A DNA stretch of 34,728 nt from the UHGV virus genome UHGV-0126338. One strand, 5' to 3'. Position 1 is the first letter of the stretch. Each line of letters starts with the position of its first letter. The translations under genes were made by a program, and so were the position numbers. Shown piece after piece: positions 3,088 through 16,479 of this stretch. The DNA is from a virus. The notes under the pieces are model-generated. The model worked only from the letters and a program-made list of their open reading frames with translations. It searched no databases and had not been told where the DNA came from.

Positions 3088-3597
3088 ATGTTTGATTACC
3101 AAGTTTCCAAACATCCACATTTTGATGAAGCCTGTCGTGCATTTGCACTGCGCCACAATCTGGTGCAACTGGCAGAACGTGCAGGCATGAATGTGCAGAT
3201 TCTGCGGAACAAGCTGAACCCAGCTCAGCCTCATCTATTAACCGCACCAGAAATCTGGCTGCTTACCGATCTGACTGAAGATTCAACGCTGGTAGATGGT
3301 TTTCTGGCACAGATTCATTGTCTGCCATGTGTACCGATTAATGAGGTGGCAAAAGAGAAACTGCCACATTACGTCATGAGTGCAACCGCAGAGATCGGGC
3401 GTGTTGCTGCAGGTGCGGTATCTGGCGATGTAAAAACCAGTGCAGGTCGTCGTGATGCTATCAGCAGCATTAACTCTGTAACACGACTGATGGCGTTGGC
3501 TGCTGTTTCATTGCAGGCCCGTTTACAGGCTAACCCTGCGATGGCGAGTGCAGTTGATACCGTGACCGGCCTCGGTGCTTCATTCGGTTTGCTGTGA
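3088..3597 (+). CDS. cII: Phage CII-type regulatory protein (CP76 family)
   Basis: ORF 3082..3597 trimmed to ATG 3088 with RBS AGAGG 8 nt upstream; ~169 aa; position after apl as in 186. Confidence 0.65.
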
Positions 3598-4888: not shown

Positions 4889-5742
4889 GCACCATCCTGA
4901 AATGGGCGGGAAATAAAACTGCCATAATGTCCGAACTGAAAAAACATCTTCCTGCTGGCCCGCGACTGGTTGAACCTTTCGCGGGTTCCTGTGCTGTGAT
5001 GATGGAGACGGATTATCCCAGCTATCTGGTTGCGGATATTAATCCTGATTTAATCAACCTCTATAAAAAGGTTGCCGCTGATTGTGAATCGTTTATATCT
5101 CGCGCCAGAGTTTTATTTGAGATCGCAAACAGGGAGGTGGCTTATTACAACATAAGGCAGGAGTTTAATTACTCAACTGAAATTACTGATTTCATGAAAG
5201 CGGTATATTTCCTGTATCTCAATCGTCACGGTTACCGTGGTTTATGTCGCTATAACAAGAGCGGGCATTTCAACATTCCCTACGGTAATTATAAAAATCC
5301 GTATTTCCCTGAAAAAGAAATTCGCGCATTTGCAGAAAAGGCCCAGCGAGCAACGTTTATCTGCGCCAGCTTTGATGAAACGCTGGCGATGTTGAAGGCG
5401 GGGGATGTGGTGTATTGCGATCCGCCGTATGACGGTACGTTTTCCGGCTATCACACTGACGGCTTCACTGAAGATGACCAGTATCACCTGGCATCTGTTC
5501 TTGAACATCGGTCATCAGAAGGACATCCGGTCATTGTTTCTAACAGTGACACATCCCTGATCCGTTCGCTGTATCGCAATTTTACTCACCACTACATCAA
5601 GGCAAAACGCAGCATCGGTGTGGCAGCTGGCGAGGGTAAATCAGCAACAGAAATCATTGCTGTTTCCGGGCCGCGCTGCTGGGTGGGATTTGATTATTCG
5701 CGTGGCGTGGATAGTTCTGCCGTGTACGGAGTACGTGCATGA
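4885..5742 (+). CDS. dam: DNA adenine methyltransferase (Dam-like, orphan)
   Basis: ORF 4825..5742 trimmed to ATG 4885 (RBS GGAGG; ATGA overlap with upstream stop); N-terminal ILKWAGNK motif and DPPY motif ([11 protein letters not shown]) read directly. Confidence 0.85.
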
Positions 5743-8153
5743 GTCATGCCGATATGAACAACTGCTGCGGCTTTAACGAAGCTGCCGCATCGTTCTCATG
5801 GAACAGCCCGAAAAAGGCCATTAACCCTTATCTGGACCCGGTGGAAGTTGCGCCGGTTTCTACGCTTTCAAACCTGATCACTCTGTACGCTGCCGATAAC
5901 GAGCAGGAACAGCTGCGCCGTGAGGCGCTGAGTGATCAGGTCTGGGAGCGTTATTTCTTTAATGAATCCCGTGATCCTGTCCAGCGCGAAATGGAACAGG
6001 ATAAGCTCATTAGTCGGGCAAAGCTGGCGCATGAGCAGCAGCGTTTTAATCCGGATATGGTCATTCTGGCGGACGTCAACGCCCAGCCTTCCCATATCAG
6101 CAAGCCGCTGATGCAACGTATTGAATACTTCAGCAGCCTGGGCAGGCCAAAGGCTTATTCCCGCTATTTACGTGAGACGATTAAGCCATGTCTGGAACGA
6201 CTGGAGCATGTACGCGACAGTCAGCTATCTGCATCTTTTCGCTTTATGGCAAGCCATGAAGGGCTGGACGGCCTGCTGATCCTGCCTGAAATGAGTCAGG
6301 ATCAGGTGAAACGCCTGTCCACCCTGGTAGCTGCGCATATGAGTATGTGCCTTGATGCCGCTTGTGGCGATTTGTATGCCACCGATGACGTTAAGCCAGA
6401 AGAAATCCGCAATACATGGGAAAGGGTGGCAGCGGAAACCCTGCGTCTGGATGTCATCCCGCCTGCGTTTGAGCAACTCCGTCGGAAAAGAAACCGCCGT
6501 AAACCCGTGCTCTATGAACTCATTCCGGGTTCGCTGGCGCGTATGTTGTGCGCCGACTGGTGGTATCGGAAATTATGGAAGATGCGTTGCGAATGGCGGG
6601 AAGAGCAGTTGCGTGCAGTCTGCCTTGTCAGCAAAAAAGCATCTCCTTATGTCAGCTATGAAGCCGTGATGCATAAACGTGAGCAGCGCCGTAAGTCGCT
6701 GGAGTTTTTCCGTTCTCATGAACTGGTGAACGAAGACGGCGACACGCTGGACATGGAGGATGTGGTAAACGCCAGCAGCAGCAACCCAGCGCATCGCCGC
6801 AATGAGATGATGGCCTGTGTTAAAGGTCTGGAGCTTATCGCGGAAATGCGCGGTGACTGCGCCGTTTTCTACACCATCACCTGTCCGTCACGTTTCCATT
6901 CCACGCTAAATAACGGCAGGCCCAACCCAACCTGGACAAATGCGACGGTAAGACAAAGCAGTGATTATCTGGTCGGCATGTTTGCTGCATTTCGTAAGGC
7001 GATGCACAAAGCCGGATTGCGGTGGTATGGCGTGCGGGTGGCTGAGCCGCATCATGACGGTACAGTTCACTGGCACCTGTTGTGTTTTATGCGCAAAAAA
7101 GACCGCCGCACCATCACTGCATTACTGCGTAAGTTTGCCATCCGTGAAGACCGCGAGGAGCTGGGCAATAACACTGGGCCGCGCTTTAAGTCTGAGTTGA
7201 TTAACCCGCGCAAAGGTACGCCAACAAGCTACATCGCGAAATACATCAGTAAGAACATTGACGGGCGTGGTCTGGCTGGCGAGATCAGCAAGGAAACGGG
7301 GAAATCCCTGCGTGATAATGCTGAATACGTTAATGCCTGGGCGTCTCTGCATCGTGTTCAGCAATTCCGCTTCTTTGGCATTCCGGGGCGTCAGGCTTAC
7401 CGTGAACTGCGATTGCTGGCTGGTCAGGCGGCAAGGCAACAGGGGGACAAAAAAGCAGGTGCGCCGGTACTGGATAACCCGCGCCTTGATGCCATTCTGG
7501 CTGCTGCTGATGCTGGTTGTTTTGCCACCTACATCATGAAGCAGGGTGGCGTACTGGTTCCCCGCAAATATCACCTCATCAGAACTGCTTATGAAATCAA
7601 CGAAGAGCCGACCGCCTATGGCGATCACGGCATTCGTATTTATGGCATCTGGTCACCTATTGCAGAGGGCAAGATCTGCACTCATGCCGTGAAGTGGAAA
7701 ATGGTTCGTAAGGCCGTTGACGTTCAGGAGGCGGCAGCCGACCAGGGCGCTTGCGCCCCTTGGACTCGTGGCAATAACTGTCCCCTTGCTGAAAATTTGA
7801 ACCAACAAGGGAAAGACAAATCAGCTGATGGGGATACCAGAACGGACATTACCCGCATGGATGACAAGGAGTTGCACGAATACCTGCACAGTATGAGCAA
7901 AAAAGAGCGCCGGGAACTGGCTGCAAGGTTACGCCTGGTGAAACCGAAACGGCGTAAAGACTACAAACAGCGAATTACAGACCATCAGCGACAGCAGCTC
8001 GTCTATGAACTGAAGTCCAGAGGATTTGATGGCAGCGAGAAAGAGGTCGATTTACTCCTTCGCGGCGGCAGTATTCCGTCAGGAGCAGGCCTGCGTATCT
8101 TCTATCGGAACCAGCGTTTGCAGGAAGATGATAAGTGGCGGAACCTGTATTAA
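5739..8153 (+). CDS. A: Replication initiation endonuclease (P2 gpA-like rolling-circle replicase)
   Basis: 804-aa ORF; motifs [11 protein letters not shown] and [12 protein letters not shown] match P2 A family from memory; start overlaps dam stop (ATGA). Confidence 0.9.
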
Positions 8154-8504: not shown

Positions 8505-8738
8505 ATGCGTATTGAAATAATGATCGATAAAGAGCAGAAGATTAGCCAGTCTACCCTGGACGCCCTTGAATCCGAGCTTTACCGCAATCTGCGCCCCCTG
8601 TATCCCAAAATGGTAATTCGCATCCGCAAAGGTAGCTCTAACGGTGTGGAACTGACCGGACTGCAACTGGACGAAGAAAGAAAACAAGTGATGAAGATTA
8701 TGCAGAAGGTGTGGGAAGACGACAGCTGGCTGCATTAA
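8505..8738 (+). CDS. DinI-family protein
   Basis: ORF 8433..8738 trimmed to ATG 8505 (RBS GAGGTG); 77 aa MRIEIMIDKEQ...WEDDSWLH resembles DinI (MRIEVTI...WESADDWF). Confidence 0.75.
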   Translation: MRIEIMIDKEQKISQSTLDALESELYRNLRPLYPKMVIRIRKGSSNGVELTGLQLDEERKQVMKIMQKVWEDDSWLH

Positions 8739-8897
8739 GAAAAGTTGCTGGCGTCTGAACTTGGTTCTGGCGTCAGCAAGGTTGAACAACGAGTACAGTG
8801 AGGCGTTAGGTGTGGCGTTTATTTGATGAGTGAACGCCCGTTCTGCGACAGGTTCGGAGATTAAGGTTGAAACTACGGGCAAAATACCATCTTTTTC

Positions 8898-9323
8898 CTA
8901 CTTAATTGAGTCCAGTAACAAGTTACAGTTACTCTCATTGTAGAGAGAACGAGCAATTAGTGTTACCTGCTTTCCATTCATTCCCGGCTTATCCCATAAC
9001 ACAGCTTCTTGCGACGCCACAAATTCAGCATAATCAATTATGCGTTGTTCGTGATCTGGTTCCTCATAGCCAAAGTATGAGAGCGCATCGTTGTAAGCGT
9101 GGTAAGCTGCTTTCTGTAATATCTTGATATCGGCTGTAGGTACTTGCTCCGTGTAGCTAGGATCTAATTGTGTGCTACTGCCATAGAATGCACATGAAAG
9201 GTAAGATATTGATTTCTATTGAGCTTTAGTTCCTTTCTCATAGTTTTTAGCTGTTACCGCCTGAACTGGGACGCTAACAAAGCTTGCAACCAGAATTAAA
9301 ATTAATACGTAAAAGCTTTTCAT
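8898..9323 (-). pseudogene. Amber-interrupted gene for a secreted protein (~141 codons, in-frame TAG at codon 36)
   Basis: Minus-strand ATG at 9323 with GAGG RBS; signal-peptide-like N-terminus MKSFYVLILILVASFVSVPVQA; in-frame TAG at 9218..9216; frame stays open to TAG at 8900..8898; translated by hand, absent from the ORF track. Confidence 0.45.
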
Positions 9324-9595
9324 TTTGACCTCAGCCGAAACGTTAGAGAGACTATCGAAATTTGTAAAACCCGTGGCGATTCAGTTTGAGATCCTCCCCC
9401 TTACATGATTTTTAATCAAATATATGCTTTTGTAAGCATACCTGTTAACCGAATTATTTATTTTTAGAGATCTTCCGACATACTGATTATGCCCGCTGAG
9501 GAGTTCACCTTGCGTAAGGTCCGATTCGCTTTACTCGTCTGTGCATGTCTATGCTGCATGAGATTGCATGATCGTTTGAGGATCGTTTTTGCTAA

Positions 9596-9623
9596 GGCCC
9601 GCCAGAACTGGCGGGCTTTTGCG
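9596..9623 (+). terminator. Putative rho-independent terminator
   Basis: GC-rich hairpin CCCGCCAG-aa-CTGGCGGG followed by CTTTTG. Confidence 0.35.
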
Positions 9624-9665
9624 TAGATCATGCACCTGCATGAAAACCACTACATAAAGCGGGCA

Positions 9666-9684
9666 GGCGTGGCGGGGATACGAG
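9666..9684. other. Putative cos site (19-nt cohesive-end region, P2/186 type)
   Basis: GGCGTGGCGGGGATACGAG shares the first 13 nt with the 186-type cohesive end as I recall it (GGCGTGGCGGGGA...); located between the replication region and portal gene Q, where cos lies in P2-like genomes. Confidence 0.4.
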
Positions 9685-9770
9685 CGCGCGCAACTCGAGA
9701 TAGTGTGATACTTATCTGAGAAATCTTAACAAGGTTCAATACAATACCCTTTCAAAAAAAGGGGAGTGTG

Positions 9771-10922
9771 ATGTTTGTAAAAAATAACTTTAATACAAAT
9801 AATTTCGATGCGGAATTAGTTGAAGCGATTGGTAATAGGCTGGAAAACAACCAATTTTCGGATGCAATACTTGCAGGAACCAAATATCTAACAACTTTGC
9901 TGCGTGAAAAAGGGCAATGTGAAGGGGATGGGGCTCAGCTTGTTGGTACTGTTTTGGGTGGACAATCACCTAGAATCCAAATTAATAGTCTTCAATCTGT
10001 ATCAGAGCAGGACGAACAGCGCGGATTTGAAGCACTATTAAGAGGCTACTATCAGTGTATAAGAAATCCAAGGACACATGACAATTTCCCTGATACAGAA
10101 GATTCCTGCATGAGAATATTGATCATGTTGGATACTTTTATTAAGTATTTAAAAAGAGATGTTGCTGAGTTCGATTACACAGCAATTCTTGAAAGAATTT
10201 ATGAGGTTCACTTTGTAAATAATTCTGATTATGCAGAAGCTTTAATATCACAAATTCCAGAAAAAAAACTACTAGATTTTTTCCAAAGTTTAATTTCTCG
10301 CTTTAATGAAAGGCCAACCAAGGAAATTGATTCTATATTCAAAGCAATAAACCAACGCTTTTCAGGAGAGGAAGAAAAAGCCGCAATGCGGTTGCTAGGT
10401 GATGAGTTACGTAAGGCTAGCAATAATGTTGAGTTTGCTAATGTATTTAGAATAATTAAGCCGAGCGCATGGAGAAATCTTCCTGATGATGTTTTAATTA
10501 GAATGGAAAATATAATCATCGAAGAGTGCAAAAAAGGATATTTGGATTTCTATTCTGATGCGACCAAAGGAGCTATAGGAACATGGGGTAATACATTTGG
10601 TAGCAAATTTAAAAGAAGAGGTGATCTTGGTGATGCTTTAATTGGATTGTTATATGATAGTTGGTATACGCAAAATTATGTTGCGAAATATTACGTTTTT
10701 TCAATCCCTTCTATCATTACTGATGATGTGAAAGTTAAGGAGTTAGCTGATGCTTTAGCTTATGCCACCATTGTAAATGGTGCTAAGCTTTTACGAACAA
10801 AATTGATTGATGCATGTAAAAATTATCCTGATAAGTTGAAAGAGCATCTTAGGGATGCTGTTCAGCAACGGATGGATAGTGATAAAAAATATGCGGAAGA
10901 ATTATTAGGTCAAATAAGCTGA
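9771..10922 (+). CDS. Cargo protein with N-terminal HEPN-like domain (R-x4-H motif; resembles TIGR02391-type family) and uncharacterised C-terminal domain; candidate anti-phage/abortive-infection effector
   Basis: ORF 9768(GTG)/9771(ATG)..10922; RBS GGGGAG; motif IRNPRTH (R99-x4-H104, nt 10062..10079); strongly AT-rich versus the flanking phage genes; sits between cos and portal gene Q, convergent with Q. Confidence 0.6.
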   Translation: MFVKNNFNTNNFDAELVEAIGNRLENNQFSDAILAGTKYLTTLLREKGQCEGDGAQLVGTVLGGQSPRIQINSLQSVSEQDEQRGFEALLRGYYQCIRNPRTHDNFPDTEDSCMRILIMLDTFIKYLKRDVAEFDYTAILERIYEVHFVNNSDYAEALISQIPEKKLLDFFQSLISRFNERPTKEIDSIFKAINQRFSGEEEKAAMRLLGDELRKASNNVEFANVFRIIKPSAWRNLPDDVLIRMENIIIEECKKGYLDFYSDATKGAIGTWGNTFGSKFKRRGDLGDALIGLLYDSWYTQNYVAKYYVFSIPSIITDDVKVKELADALAYATIVNGAKLLRTKLIDACKNYPDKLKEHLRDAVQQRMDSDKKYAEELLGQIS

Positions 10923-10931
10923 TTATTATTT

Positions 10932-10961
10932 GCACCTAATCTCACTTTCGATGTTAGGTGC
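10932..10961. terminator. Hairpin between convergent genes (possible bidirectional terminator)
   Basis: GCACCTAA (10932..10939) ... TTAGGTGC (10954..10961), 8-bp stem, in the 51-bp gap between the cargo gene and Q stops. Confidence 0.3.
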
Positions 10962-10973
10962 ATTTCTATATGC

Positions 10974-12011
10974 CTAATCTAATTCATATGAGGTAAATTT
11001 AACCAGTTCTTCATTAAGTCCAATCCATGAGTTAATTTCAGATATTCTGTGTTGTAGCGGAATTAACTCATTCCTGACAAAAACCTTACTAGCCTTTTCA
11101 ACATCCCCAAACCCGCCAACATTACTAGGCATAATCCCCATCATCTGCGGCGGTACACGGTGCGCTGCCATCATGTCATCCCGGCTCACGTTCTTGATGT
11201 TCAGAAACTCATCTTTTGCCGCCACCTCTGACAGCGGGATGATCTGAATCCCGTCTTTCTTTCCGTTGGGTGAGTACATAAACAAGTTGCGGAAGTTGCC
11301 CGGCCCTTTGGCGCTTTTCATCGCATTGCGGAGGTTGTTCACATCCTCCTGGTTCTGCGCGGCATCGGTCATGTACATGATGAAGCCTGCATGACTACCG
11401 TTAATGTAATATTTGCGGCGGAACAGCGTGGCGGACTCGTTGAGCAAAGCGGATGGGATGGCAGAAAGATAGCCGGGCAGGCCGTAGATCTCCTGATTAA
11501 TATCTGGTTCCATCAGATGAAAAATGCTGCCTTTCGTGAACTGATACGGCTGGGTTGTCATACCGTATTGCACAAACCAGTAGGTATCCAGGTCTAACCC
11601 GCGTCGGGTATATTTTGCCAGGGCAGGCTCAAGGGCGATAACTTCACCGAAGCGGTTCGTGCGTTTCTCCAGGTAGGCGTTACCAAATACCAGGTAGTCC
11701 TGCACAAAACGTGAAAAAGCCTGCTGGCTGAGCAGCGGGTGAGGGATATAGGTACTGGTCAGAATGTTGCACTTTACTGCAATCGGGGAACTGTGATGCA
11801 CGGCAGCGCGGAAGGTGCGCGCCAGTCCGTCAAAGCTGACGGGCGGCTCATACCAACGGTCCATCTGTACGCATTCCACATAGTCCAGTAATTCTCGGCG
11901 GTCCAGAACAGGAACGGGATCGCCGAAGCTGAATGCTTCGGCTGTAGTTTGACTTTTAAGCTGGATCTGATTCGTCGCCGCAGCGCGGTTCTTCTTACTC
12001 TTTCCCATCAA
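10974..12011 (-). CDS. Q: Portal protein (P2 gpQ-like)
   Basis: 345 aa, overlaps terminase P stop; size and order match P2 Q. Confidence 0.9.
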   Translation of the reverse strand: MMGKSKKNRAAATNQIQLKSQTTAEAFSFGDPVPVLDRRELLDYVECVQMDRWYEPPVSFDGLARTFRAAVHHSSPIAVKCNILTSTYIPHPLLSQQAFSRFVQDYLVFGNAYLEKRTNRFGEVIALEPALAKYTRRGLDLDTYWFVQYGMTTQPYQFTKGSIFHLMEPDINQEIYGLPGYLSAIPSALLNESATLFRRKYYINGSHAGFIMYMTDAAQNQEDVNNLRNAMKSAKGPGNFRNLFMYSPNGKKDGIQIIPLSEVAAKDEFLNIKNVSRDDMMAAHRVPPQMMGIMPSNVGGFGDVEKASKVFVRNELIPLQHRISEINSWIGLNEELVKFTSYELD

Positions 12012-13774
12012 AAAATCTCCACAATATTGCTGGTATTGGCGGATTCACCCTGCAGCGGTTCGTTAAACAGTGCGTGCATCGTTGCCCAGGCCAGATCGGC
12101 GTGGCTGGCTTCTTCGCTGCGGCTGGCTTCATAGGTCGGGCGGTTGCCACTGGCGGTGGTGGCGCGACGGATTGCCATGAATGACTGCGCAATGTCGGTG
12201 TGCCCGGCGTCAAACTCCAGACGGCGGTGGCTGATAATGTCGTAGGCCTTGAGTACCAGGGCGTTTTTAACGTTGGGGTTGTAGACAAACTCCCGGACGG
12301 CAGGAAAGAACGCTTTCACGTTCTCATAAACCCCGTGACCAACGCCGGTTGAGTCGATGCCGATATAGGTCACGTTGTACTGTTCGGTCAGTTTTTTGAT
12401 GGCGTCAGCCTGGGCGCGAAAGTCCATCCCGCGCCACTGGTGACGCTCAAGAATGCGGAACTTGCCGCCCGGCACGGCTGGCGGTGCCACCACCACGCAT
12501 CCGGCACTGTCGCCGTTCTGCGTACCTTTCGCCGGGTCATAACCGATCCACACTTCGCGCCAGCCAAATGGGCGCAGTGCCAGTGCATGAAAGTCGGTCC
12601 AGACTTCCCAGCTGTCCACCATGCACGCCTGCAGCTCGCTGAGTGGGAACACAGACGCGAGATCGTCCACAAACTCGCACATCAGCAGGTTCTGGTATTC
12701 GTCCGGGCTGTACTCCATGCGTAACTGATCGAGGTCGAACAGGTTACATCCGCCGCGCACTGCATCTTCCACGGTGACAATCTGGCGGTATTGCCCGTCT
12801 GCGCACAGCAGGCCGGGGGCCAGATTGCTGTGGGACAGGTCGATGTCCACCTTATCTGCTTTGTTGCGCCCACGGTTGAACAGCGCACCGGACCAGAACG
12901 GATAAGCACTGTGTGTCAGGCTGGATGGCGTGGAAAAATAGGTTTGTCGCCATTTCTTGTGAATAGCCATACCGGAAGCCACTTTGCGCAGCTCCTGGAA
13001 TTTCGGTATCCAGAAATATTCATCCAGATACAGGTTGCCGTGATAACTCTGGGCCGTGCGGGCATTGGTGCCGAGGAAGTAAAGCGTGGCCCCGTTAGGA
13101 AGCACCATCGGATCGCCTTTCAACTCCACCTCCACTTCTTTGGCGAAGTCGATGATGTACTGCTTAAAGACGTGGGCCTGTGCCTTGCTGGCGGAAAGGA
13201 AAATCTGGTTACGTCCGGTCAGCAGGGCGTCAATCAGGGCTTCACGGGCAAAGTAAAAGGTCGCGCCGATCTGGCGTGACTTCAGCAGGTTGCGGATGCG
13301 GTTGGTTTTTCCGGCTTCCCACCAGTGGCGCTGGTAGTTGAACATGGAGGAATGGAAGATTTCTTCCAGCTTCTCAATCTGCTCATCGGTGAAAACATTC
13401 TTTTCCGGCTGACGGCGTGGGCCTTTGTTGCGGTTGGCGACGTTAGGGTTTAAGTCGGATTCGTTGCCGCCATTGTTAAACTTGCCGATCCGCGCGTGGC
13501 GCTCAGACTGGCGCGCCAGCAGGTCAATCTCTTTGAAATCTTTCCCTTCTTTGTGCTCCTTCATGATGAGCTGGCAGTAGCGTGCGGCGGTGGTGAGCTG
13601 CATCTGATCCAGCGGCCCATAGTCACCCCACTTGTCGCGTTTTTTCCAGCTGTGAACGGTTGCAACTTTCTCGCCCAGCATTTCAGCAATGCGGGCTACG
13701 CGGTATCCCTGAAAGTACAGCAGCATGGCCTGCCGACGGGGATCGAGATCTGCGGGTGTCAGTGTGGTGTTCAT
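12008..13774 (-). CDS. P: Terminase large (ATPase) subunit (P2 gpP-like)
   Basis: 588 aa, divergent from O, upstream of Q in the same orientation. Confidence 0.9.
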   Translation of the reverse strand: MNTTLTPADLDPRRQAMLLYFQGYRVARIAEMLGEKVATVHSWKKRDKWGDYGPLDQMQLTTAARYCQLIMKEHKEGKDFKEIDLLARQSERHARIGKFNNGGNESDLNPNVANRNKGPRRQPEKNVFTDEQIEKLEEIFHSSMFNYQRHWWEAGKTNRIRNLLKSRQIGATFYFAREALIDALLTGRNQIFLSASKAQAHVFKQYIIDFAKEVEVELKGDPMVLPNGATLYFLGTNARTAQSYHGNLYLDEYFWIPKFQELRKVASGMAIHKKWRQTYFSTPSSLTHSAYPFWSGALFNRGRNKADKVDIDLSHSNLAPGLLCADGQYRQIVTVEDAVRGGCNLFDLDQLRMEYSPDEYQNLLMCEFVDDLASVFPLSELQACMVDSWEVWTDFHALALRPFGWREVWIGYDPAKGTQNGDSAGCVVVAPPAVPGGKFRILERHQWRGMDFRAQADAIKKLTEQYNVTYIGIDSTGVGHGVYENVKAFFPAVREFVYNPNVKNALVLKAYDIISHRRLEFDAGHTDIAQSFMAIRRATTASGNRPTYEASRSEEASHADLAWATMHALFNEPLQGESANTSNIVEIF

Positions 13775-15828: not shown

Positions 15829-16479
15829 ATGAGCCTGAGTCCCGCACGGCAGCATCGCCTGCGCGTTCAGGCTGAACAGGCCGCCCGCGAGGGCGGCAGT
15901 GTTCGCCACGCGTCGGGCTATGACCTGATGCTGCTGCAACTGGCGGAAGACCGCCGCCGTCTCAAGGGCGTTCAGTCCACGGTCAAAAAAGCGGAAATCA
16001 AGGTGGAGCTGCTGCCGAAGTACGCCGCCTGGGCAGAGGGTGTCCTGGCTGCCGGAGGCGCTCAACAGGATGACGTGCTGATGTACGTGATGCTGTGGCG
16101 CATTGATGCCGGAGATTATGCCGGGGCGCTGGAGATCGGGCGTCATGCCCTGCGTCATGGCTGGGTGATGCCGCTGGGTAACCGCAACGTGCAGACCGTG
16201 CTGGCAGAGGAAATGGCAGACGCCGCACAGAGCGCAATGCTTGCCGCCACCGGCTTTGATGTCGATCTGTTGCTGCAGACGCTGGAGCTGACAGACGGTC
16301 TGGATATGCCGGACCAGTCACGGGCGCGTCTGCATAAAGCGATTGGCGCGGTCCTGAGTGAAGGCAATCCGGCGTCTGCCCTTAATCATCTCAACCATGC
16401 GTTACAGCTCGATCCCCGCTGTGGCGTGAAAAAAGACAAACAGCAGCTGGAGCGCAGACTGCGCAATGACAGCCGCTGA
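15829..16479 (+). CDS. M: Terminase endonuclease/small subunit (P2 gpM-like)
   Basis: 216 aa after N. Confidence 0.8.
   Translation: MSLSPARQHRLRVQAEQAAREGGSVRHASGYDLMLLQLAEDRRRLKGVQSTVKKAEIKVELLPKYAAWAEGVLAAGGAQQDDVLMYVMLWRIDAGDYAGALEIGRHALRHGWVMPLGNRNVQTVLAEEMADAAQSAMLAATGFDVDLLLQTLELTDGLDMPDQSRARLHKAIGAVLSEGNPASALNHLNHALQLDPRCGVKKDKQQLERRLRNDSR

Follow-up and report, generated by a model that had tools for sequence, protein, structure and literature searches.

A probable cos site of the Fels-2/SEN8 type between two variable cargo slots in a P2-family prophage of Escherichia coli

Cos sites and cargo loci of P2-like phages

The annotated cos of phage P2 is the 19-mer GGCGAGGCGGGGAAAGCAC (record bases 1–19), and that of phage 186 is GGCGTGGCGGGGAAAGCAT (NC_001317, 1–19). 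A conserved cos core of approximately 55 bp is attributed to P2-family phages by Ziermann and Calendar (1990), as cited in PMC5694545. A putative cos has also been published for Salmonella phage SEN8, a Fels-2-like phage that was recovered as particles and sequenced (PMC5427200). The records of SEN8 and of phage Cartapus start at or near this 19-mer by annotation or homology, with cos labeled as "putative," and PhageTerm support is confined to a P2-type 19-mer, that of phage HQ103.

The cos-proximal locus between gpA and gpQ of P2-like phages is a hotspot for anti-phage systems, wherein cohesive ends have been speculated to drive the exchange of genes (Rousset et al. 2022, PMC9122126). The protein WP_000497736 (Hypoth_Ymh) appears in Table S5A of the same study among P2-encoded loci, for example that of NC_004431. 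A 2026 survey again placed most P2 defences between gpA and gpQ. Earlier, the interval from cosL to the gpQ homologue had been proposed as a place where foreign genes are acquired (Dodd and Egan 1996 and Nakayama et al. 1999, as cited in PMC5694545), and the title of Dodd and Egan (1996) points to retrons Ec67 and Ec86 in the cos-to-Q "moron" slot.

A predicted cohesive end at 9666–9684

The window analyzed here is the whole stretch of 34,728 nucleotides deposited as UHGV virus genome UHGV-0126338, and a chromosomal prophage of E. coli EC931 (NZ_CP049118) is almost, but not fully, identical to it. Pfam matches identify an integrase gene on the minus strand (691–1899), followed by genes for the gpA replication protein (5739–8153) and a DinI-family protein (8505–8738). 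Farther along are a portal protein gene (gpQ homologue, 10974–12011, minus strand; Phage_portal), a terminase large subunit gene (gpP homologue, 12008–13774, minus strand; Terminase_5, Terminase_6N, and Terminase_6C), and a terminase small subunit gene (gpM homologue, 15829–16479, plus strand; Phage_term_smal). The gene order gpA, DinI, cos, portal (minus strand), and terminase (minus strand) is the same as in P2, 186, Fels-2, and SEN8, and it places cos between the replication and accessory region and the leftward portal-terminase operon.

By direct reading of the plus strand, the window carries GGCGTGGCGGGGATACGAG at 9666–9684, which has the form GGCG(A/T)GGCGGGGA... that is typical of P2/186-type cohesive ends. 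A first-pass annotation had proposed this 19-mer as a putative cos based on a resemblance of its first 13 nucleotides to the 186 cohesive end, and had suggested alignment to the P2 and 186 cos regions as a check. These 13 nucleotides indeed prove identical (13/13) to the annotated cos of 186. We rebuilt the circular junctions of P2 and 186 from the ends of their records and aligned them with the window and four relatives. The window site matches those of P2, 186, Fels-2, SEN8, 813R9, 500465-1, and MLG42 column for column, and its 19-mer lands exactly on the cos columns of P2 and 186. Together with the published putative cos of SEN8, which is the same 19-mer, this in-register alignment upholds the proposed assignment.

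Identity within the 19-mer is 15/19 to 186 and 14/19 to P2, and the predicted overhang ends in TACGAG in the window versus AAGCAC/AAGCAT in the two reference phages. Over a 55-bp stretch in register, identity is 44/55 to 186 and 41/55 to P2; in the 100 bp just outside the island on each side, it is 22–25% to 186 and 26–27% to P2. Note that the limits used for this core on the plus strand (9636–9690, which take in the 19-mer, the 30 nucleotides to its left, and the CGCGCG to its right) are our own best reconstruction. The likeness to P2 and 186 extends to the place of the site relative to the portal-terminase operon, to TGCAT repeats on the same arm, and to a CGCGCG/GCGCGC stretch that directly follows the 19-mer in all three. 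In contrast, the small terminase subunit of the window is merely ~49% identical to theirs.

The resemblance of the 19-mer to the 186 end might be a chance similarity between GC-rich sequences, with the true cos or a pac site located elsewhere. When up to two mismatches are allowed, a scan of the window finds the 13-mer common with 186 three times, twice at further unrelated sites, versus 0.94 occurrences expected by chance. However, the exact 13-mer occurs only once in the entire window, the 55-bp core and the surrounding 151-bp island align without a shift to annotated cos junctions and occupy the syntenic place, and the terminase belongs to the P2 cos type, such that chance similarity is effectively refuted. 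Because near-matches to the 13-mer occur at about the level expected by chance, the case for cos is carried by the aligned context and not by the 13-mer alone.

The correspondence with SEN8 is closer. Its cos 19-mer, ggcgtggcggggatacgag, is identical to that of the window, and its record opens with the 19-mer and closes at the homologue of window position 9665. The same cos type is present in the Fels-2 group (Felsduovirus; also 813R9, RE2010, and SopEPhi), wherein phage 500465-1 has a 1-nucleotide deletion in the 19-mer. The 125-bp left arm of SEN8 and the Fels-2 group is 90–97% identical to that of the window, all of these phages carry cargo in the interval from cos to the portal gene, and it is the cargo alone that differs from the window.

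The packaging proteins give a similar picture. The large terminase subunit, which is the enzyme expected to cut at cos, is 99.5% identical to that of SEN8 and 63% identical to those of both P2 and 186. For the small subunit, the expected recogniser of cos, the corresponding values are 94% (SEN8), 50% (P2), and 49% (186), and the portal protein is 88.6% identical to its SEN8 homologue and 62% identical to P2 gpQ. Since the divergent TACGAG end of the overhang is paired with a divergent small subunit, enzyme and cut site seem to form a cognate pair.

Given these findings, positions 9541–9691 are very probably the cos site of a P2-family (Peduoviridae) prophage of the Fels-2/SEN8 type, apparently intact and integrated into an E. 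coli chromosome. By analogy with P2 and 186, the terminase formed by the gpM and gpP homologues would recognize this island during lytic growth, probably through the TGCATG(A) repeats of the 125-bp arm, and would then nick the DNA with a stagger of 19 nucleotides. The predicted nicks are at 9665/9666 (top strand) and 9684/9685 (bottom strand), yielding 5′ overhangs; these positions are taken over from the annotation note of the 186 record, and the overhang length of 19 nucleotides is likewise assumed from the reference phages. The packaged linear genome would begin at 9666 with GGCGTGGCGGGGATACGAG as a 5′ single strand, and its right end would consist of the DinI gene, a disrupted 141-amino acid gene, and the 125-bp arm. 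The cos reading thus sets both termini of the packaged DNA (left, 9666; right, 9684 including the overhang), and its value is mainly one of annotation.

A conserved site of this kind could instead be a relic that is never cut, residing in a cryptic or defective element. In E. coli, prophages of the P2 type often cannot be induced, one of the cargo genes neighboring the site carries a nonsense codon, and EC931, which is the closest complete genome, has a frameshifted gpA. Against this, gpA in the window is intact and 98% identical, without gaps, to the full-length gpA of RM10466, and the integrase, the portal protein, and the two subunits of the terminase retain their full length and complete domains. 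Moreover, many independent copies of the island have an identical 19-mer and are 89–97% identical to the window over the remainder of the island. We therefore regard a relic as unlikely and retain the reading of a cos site in an apparently intact prophage. Separately, we note that EC931 differs from the window by a 1-base deletion in gpA at approximately position 7782, and that RefSeq flags the EC931 gene as frameshifted; the window therefore derives from another strain or assembly that is closely related to EC931.

The conserved island, its repeats, and its hairpin

The island on the plus strand (9541–9691) consists of the 19-mer with 125 bp toward the right end of the genome and 7 bp toward the left end, as delimited by conservation in IMG/VR and by the edges of BLAST matches. 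An exact-match scan of IMG/VR identified at least 120 loci, and the 112 with enough flanking sequence, together with the window, gave 113 distinct sequences for comparison. Among the matches listed, most alignment columns are 80–100% conserved from −125 to +25 relative to the 19-mer, and conservation falls to ~35% beyond these limits. The same edges are evident in BLAST comparisons with phage records (query 142–295) and in complete E. coli genomes. A match, mostly to the island alone, is present in 1,279 of 5,426 complete E. coli genomes, and the whole stretch from 8740 to 11000 is present in a single one of those. Unrelated, variable cargo flanks the island on both sides. Among the matches listed whose contigs are available in full, none has the 19-mer match at a contig end, and scans of the whole window for Rfam families and tRNAs returned no matches.

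The plus strand carries three direct TGCATG(A) repeats at the outer edge of the arm (9541–9571), namely GTGCATG at 9541–9547 and TGCATGA at 9555–9561 and 9565–9571. Their conservation and clustering point to them as candidate binding sites for the terminase small subunit. An inverted pair, TCATGCA-cc-TGCATGA (9628–9643), is located beside the core, and its central dinucleotide is either CC or GG among relatives. The full TGCATGA sequence occurs at 9555, 9565, and 9637, with an inverted copy at 9628, placing four of the nine such sites of the 34.7-kb window within 89 bp (9555–9643), a clustering judged by hand estimate. Over the window as a whole, the motif shows no overall enrichment (9 occurrences versus 8.8 expected). 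The island also holds two Dam (GATC) sites, formed by two copies of GATCGTTT spaced 11 bp apart at 9570–9588. In one sub-lineage this segment is swapped for the palindrome GATCC-AAAAA-GGATC, and both GATC sites are kept.

Between the two groups of repeats is a GC-rich hairpin followed by a short T-run (9597–9620, plus strand), which the first-pass annotation had reported ahead of the 19-mer and interpreted as an adjacent terminator. The structure is present as described, and is a perfect 9-bp palindrome wherein GCCCGCCAG (9597–9605) and CTGGCGGGC (9608–9616) are separated by AA and followed by TTTT (9617–9620). The RNA fold has a predicted energy of −24.6 kcal/mol (z = −5.1), and none of 200 dinucleotide shuffles is as stable. 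Among relatives, the stem and the T-run are conserved and the loop is variable (GAAC, GTTC, GGAA). The T-run is only 4 nucleotides long and is followed by GCGT, and a consensus terminator scan did not flag the hairpin, which we attribute to the ability of the stem to extend into the T-run.

We hypothesize that the hairpin serves as an intrinsic terminator of rightward transcription from the DinI gene or the left-hand cargo genes, a role that is plausible from its fold and conservation. In phage 813R9, where no cargo is present to the left of cos, the hairpin is the first terminator-like structure downstream of dinI, and no other terminator-like site was found on the plus strand between dinI and cos. 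Such a terminator would stop rightward transcription of the SOS-controlled DinI operon, or of the left-hand cargo genes, before cos and would prevent it from running antisense into the late portal-terminase operon. In the window, which contains an SOS module of the DinI/Tum type, the nearest gene upstream of the hairpin is on the opposite strand.

Alternatively, the hairpin could act at the DNA level as a cos element, such as a palindromic binding or bending site for terminase or a host factor. It is contained within the conserved block, and at the same position 186 has a weaker palindrome, CGCCAG-ag-CTGGCG, that lacks a T-run, with the terminator t95b of that phage located farther upstream of the island rather than inside it as in the window. 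Loop flips between GAAC and GTTC are typical of a symmetric DNA site. Furthermore, a search for RNA-level constraint via the asymmetry of G·U and A·C substitutions in 65 hairpin variants, among the matches listed, gave no strand bias and few double changes, with G·U and A·C about equally frequent (451 Watson-Crick cells, 19 G·U, 15 A·C, and 35 other). However, P2 has no palindrome at this position and its cos is functional, and therefore the hairpin is not a general requirement for cos. The TTTT tract is itself conserved among the matches listed (TTTTGC in 32 and TTTTTC in 9 of the 65 variants), and its place as the first terminator-like structure after dinI in relatives that lack left-hand cargo likewise argues for termination. 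On balance, the DNA-element reading is somewhat unlikely and the terminator role is the more likely of the two. The terminator proposed in the first-pass annotation thus stands as a real and conserved structure, and its function is best described as putative.

Two copies of the site in IMG/VR occur in unusual settings. One contig, IMGVR_UViG_2700989567_000009, has the exact 19-mer followed by CGCGCGC on its minus strand (1475–1493) beside a poorly conserved left arm. This element is not P2-like. Its products include a DnaC/IstB-like ATPase, a ParB-HTH protein, YdaT, and DUF977, and it has no portal, DinI, or gpA homologue. A DndB-family (defence-like) gene is located directly on the "left-end" side of its cos. 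Such non-P2 elements may be unrecognised satellites or hitchers that use a Fels-2-type terminase and cos. The other, metagenome contig IMGVR_UViG_3300011853_000021, carries two full cos islands in inverted orientation approximately 3.2 kb apart (3447–3465, minus strand, and 6704–6722, plus strand) that are 87–88% identical to that of the window. Two related phages may have been joined here during assembly, or the rearrangement may be real.

Cargo slots on the two sides of cos

The gene immediately to the right of the island (9771–10922, plus strand) encodes a 383-amino acid protein of the Hypoth_Ymh/TIGR02391 family (HEPN type; WP_000497736), as assigned by Pfam and RefSeq. The protein matches Pfam PF09509 (E = 2.9e-23) and TIGR02391 and has an R-x4-H motif (R98–H103). 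PADLOC matches to the HEPN domains of PD-Lambda-3_B and Aga_HEPN predict a defence role from domains only. Under the convention used for P2 and 186, the 19-mer opens the left end, and the genome is read from there toward the portal gene. With cos at 9666–9684, this convention makes the Hypoth_Ymh gene the first from the left end: its start at 9771 is 105 nucleotides to the right of the predicted cut and ahead of the portal gene. The earlier suggestion that the gene at 9771 is first at one end of the packaged genome is therefore correct given cos. In P2 and 186, by comparison, the portal stop is ~170–180 bp past the end of the 19-mer with no gene between them, whereas the window holds a 1.15-kb cargo gene at this place.

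The exact 383-amino acid protein is widespread in assemblies. It is encoded 105 nucleotides to the right of the 19-mer in all seven other contexts examined, with left slots that differ (empty, 66 plus 260 amino acids, 225 amino acids, DUF8087, and DUF6694). No homologue of the cargo gene was found in the IMG/VR loci among the 120 matches listed. Other genes occupy the position to the right of cos in related phages, namely a 565-amino acid hypothetical protein in Fels-2, a TIR protein in 500465-1, a hypothetical protein and an HNH endonuclease in SEN8, and a DUF4145 protein in Cartapus; 813R9 has the same Hypoth_Ymh gene as the window.

The spacing on both sides of cos is likewise variable. Among the IMG/VR matches listed, cos and the portal (Q) stop are 154 to 3,532 bp apart, with only 9 of 86 as short as in P2 and 186, and 206 to 3,212 bp separate the DinI stop from cos. 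The corresponding distances in the window are 1,290 bp and 928 bp. RM10466 and AH19D088 share the left slot and island of the window at 99.5–99.8% identity up to approximately 9691–9693, past which RM10466 has a different right-slot gene. Because the same cargo occurs with varied left slots and the same left slot occurs with another right-hand gene, the left and right slots assort independently of each other. Between these two variable slots, DinI to cos and cos to portal, the island is the sole conserved sequence.

The left slot of the window holds a gene for a 141-amino acid, signal-peptide-like protein (8898–9323, minus strand; WP_000834899 in EC931 and RM10466) with an in-frame TAG at codon 36. 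The base at 9218 is A in place of G, converting CAG to TAG, and either the gene is a pseudogene in the window or the TAG is a sequencing error.

This organization corresponds to the hotspot known from P2-like phages. The window has a gpA–gpQ locus beside cos whose gene content varies among related prophages and is often defence-related, a layout that differs in nothing material from the one described. The arrangement is already known from the literature, and ours is the correct reading of a known layout, wherein the Hypoth_Ymh/HEPN gene forms the right half of the cos-proximal defence hotspot. A small refinement is that the hotspot comprises two independently assorting slots parted by the 151-bp island, whereas the published analyses consulted treat gpA–gpQ as one locus. 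Independent slots fit the published speculation that cohesive ends promote the exchange of cassettes.

A further-reaching proposal joins these elements. The island would be a pivot for independent slot exchange, with breakpoints inside it or at its edges; the hairpin would serve both in termination and in terminase recognition in the Fels-2 lineage; and placement at the end of the genome would give the HEPN cargo an advantage in timing. If so, this end-proximal cargo would enter a new host ahead of (or after) the rest of the phage DNA. We consider the combination quite improbable and offer it as speculation.

Two additional features concern transcription around the cargo gene. A terminator-like site, CCCTTTTTTTGAAAGGG with a T-rich tail, is present on the minus strand at 9747–9763, shortly before the cargo gene begins. 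The cargo and portal stops are separated by a gap of 51 bp (10923–10973) that holds only a hairpin formed by GCACCTAA and TTAGGTGC, with no T-run on the portal strand, and no tQ/tW terminator of the P2/186 type is evident past the portal gene in the window. Late portal-terminase transcripts may run antisense through the cargo gene and end short of cos.
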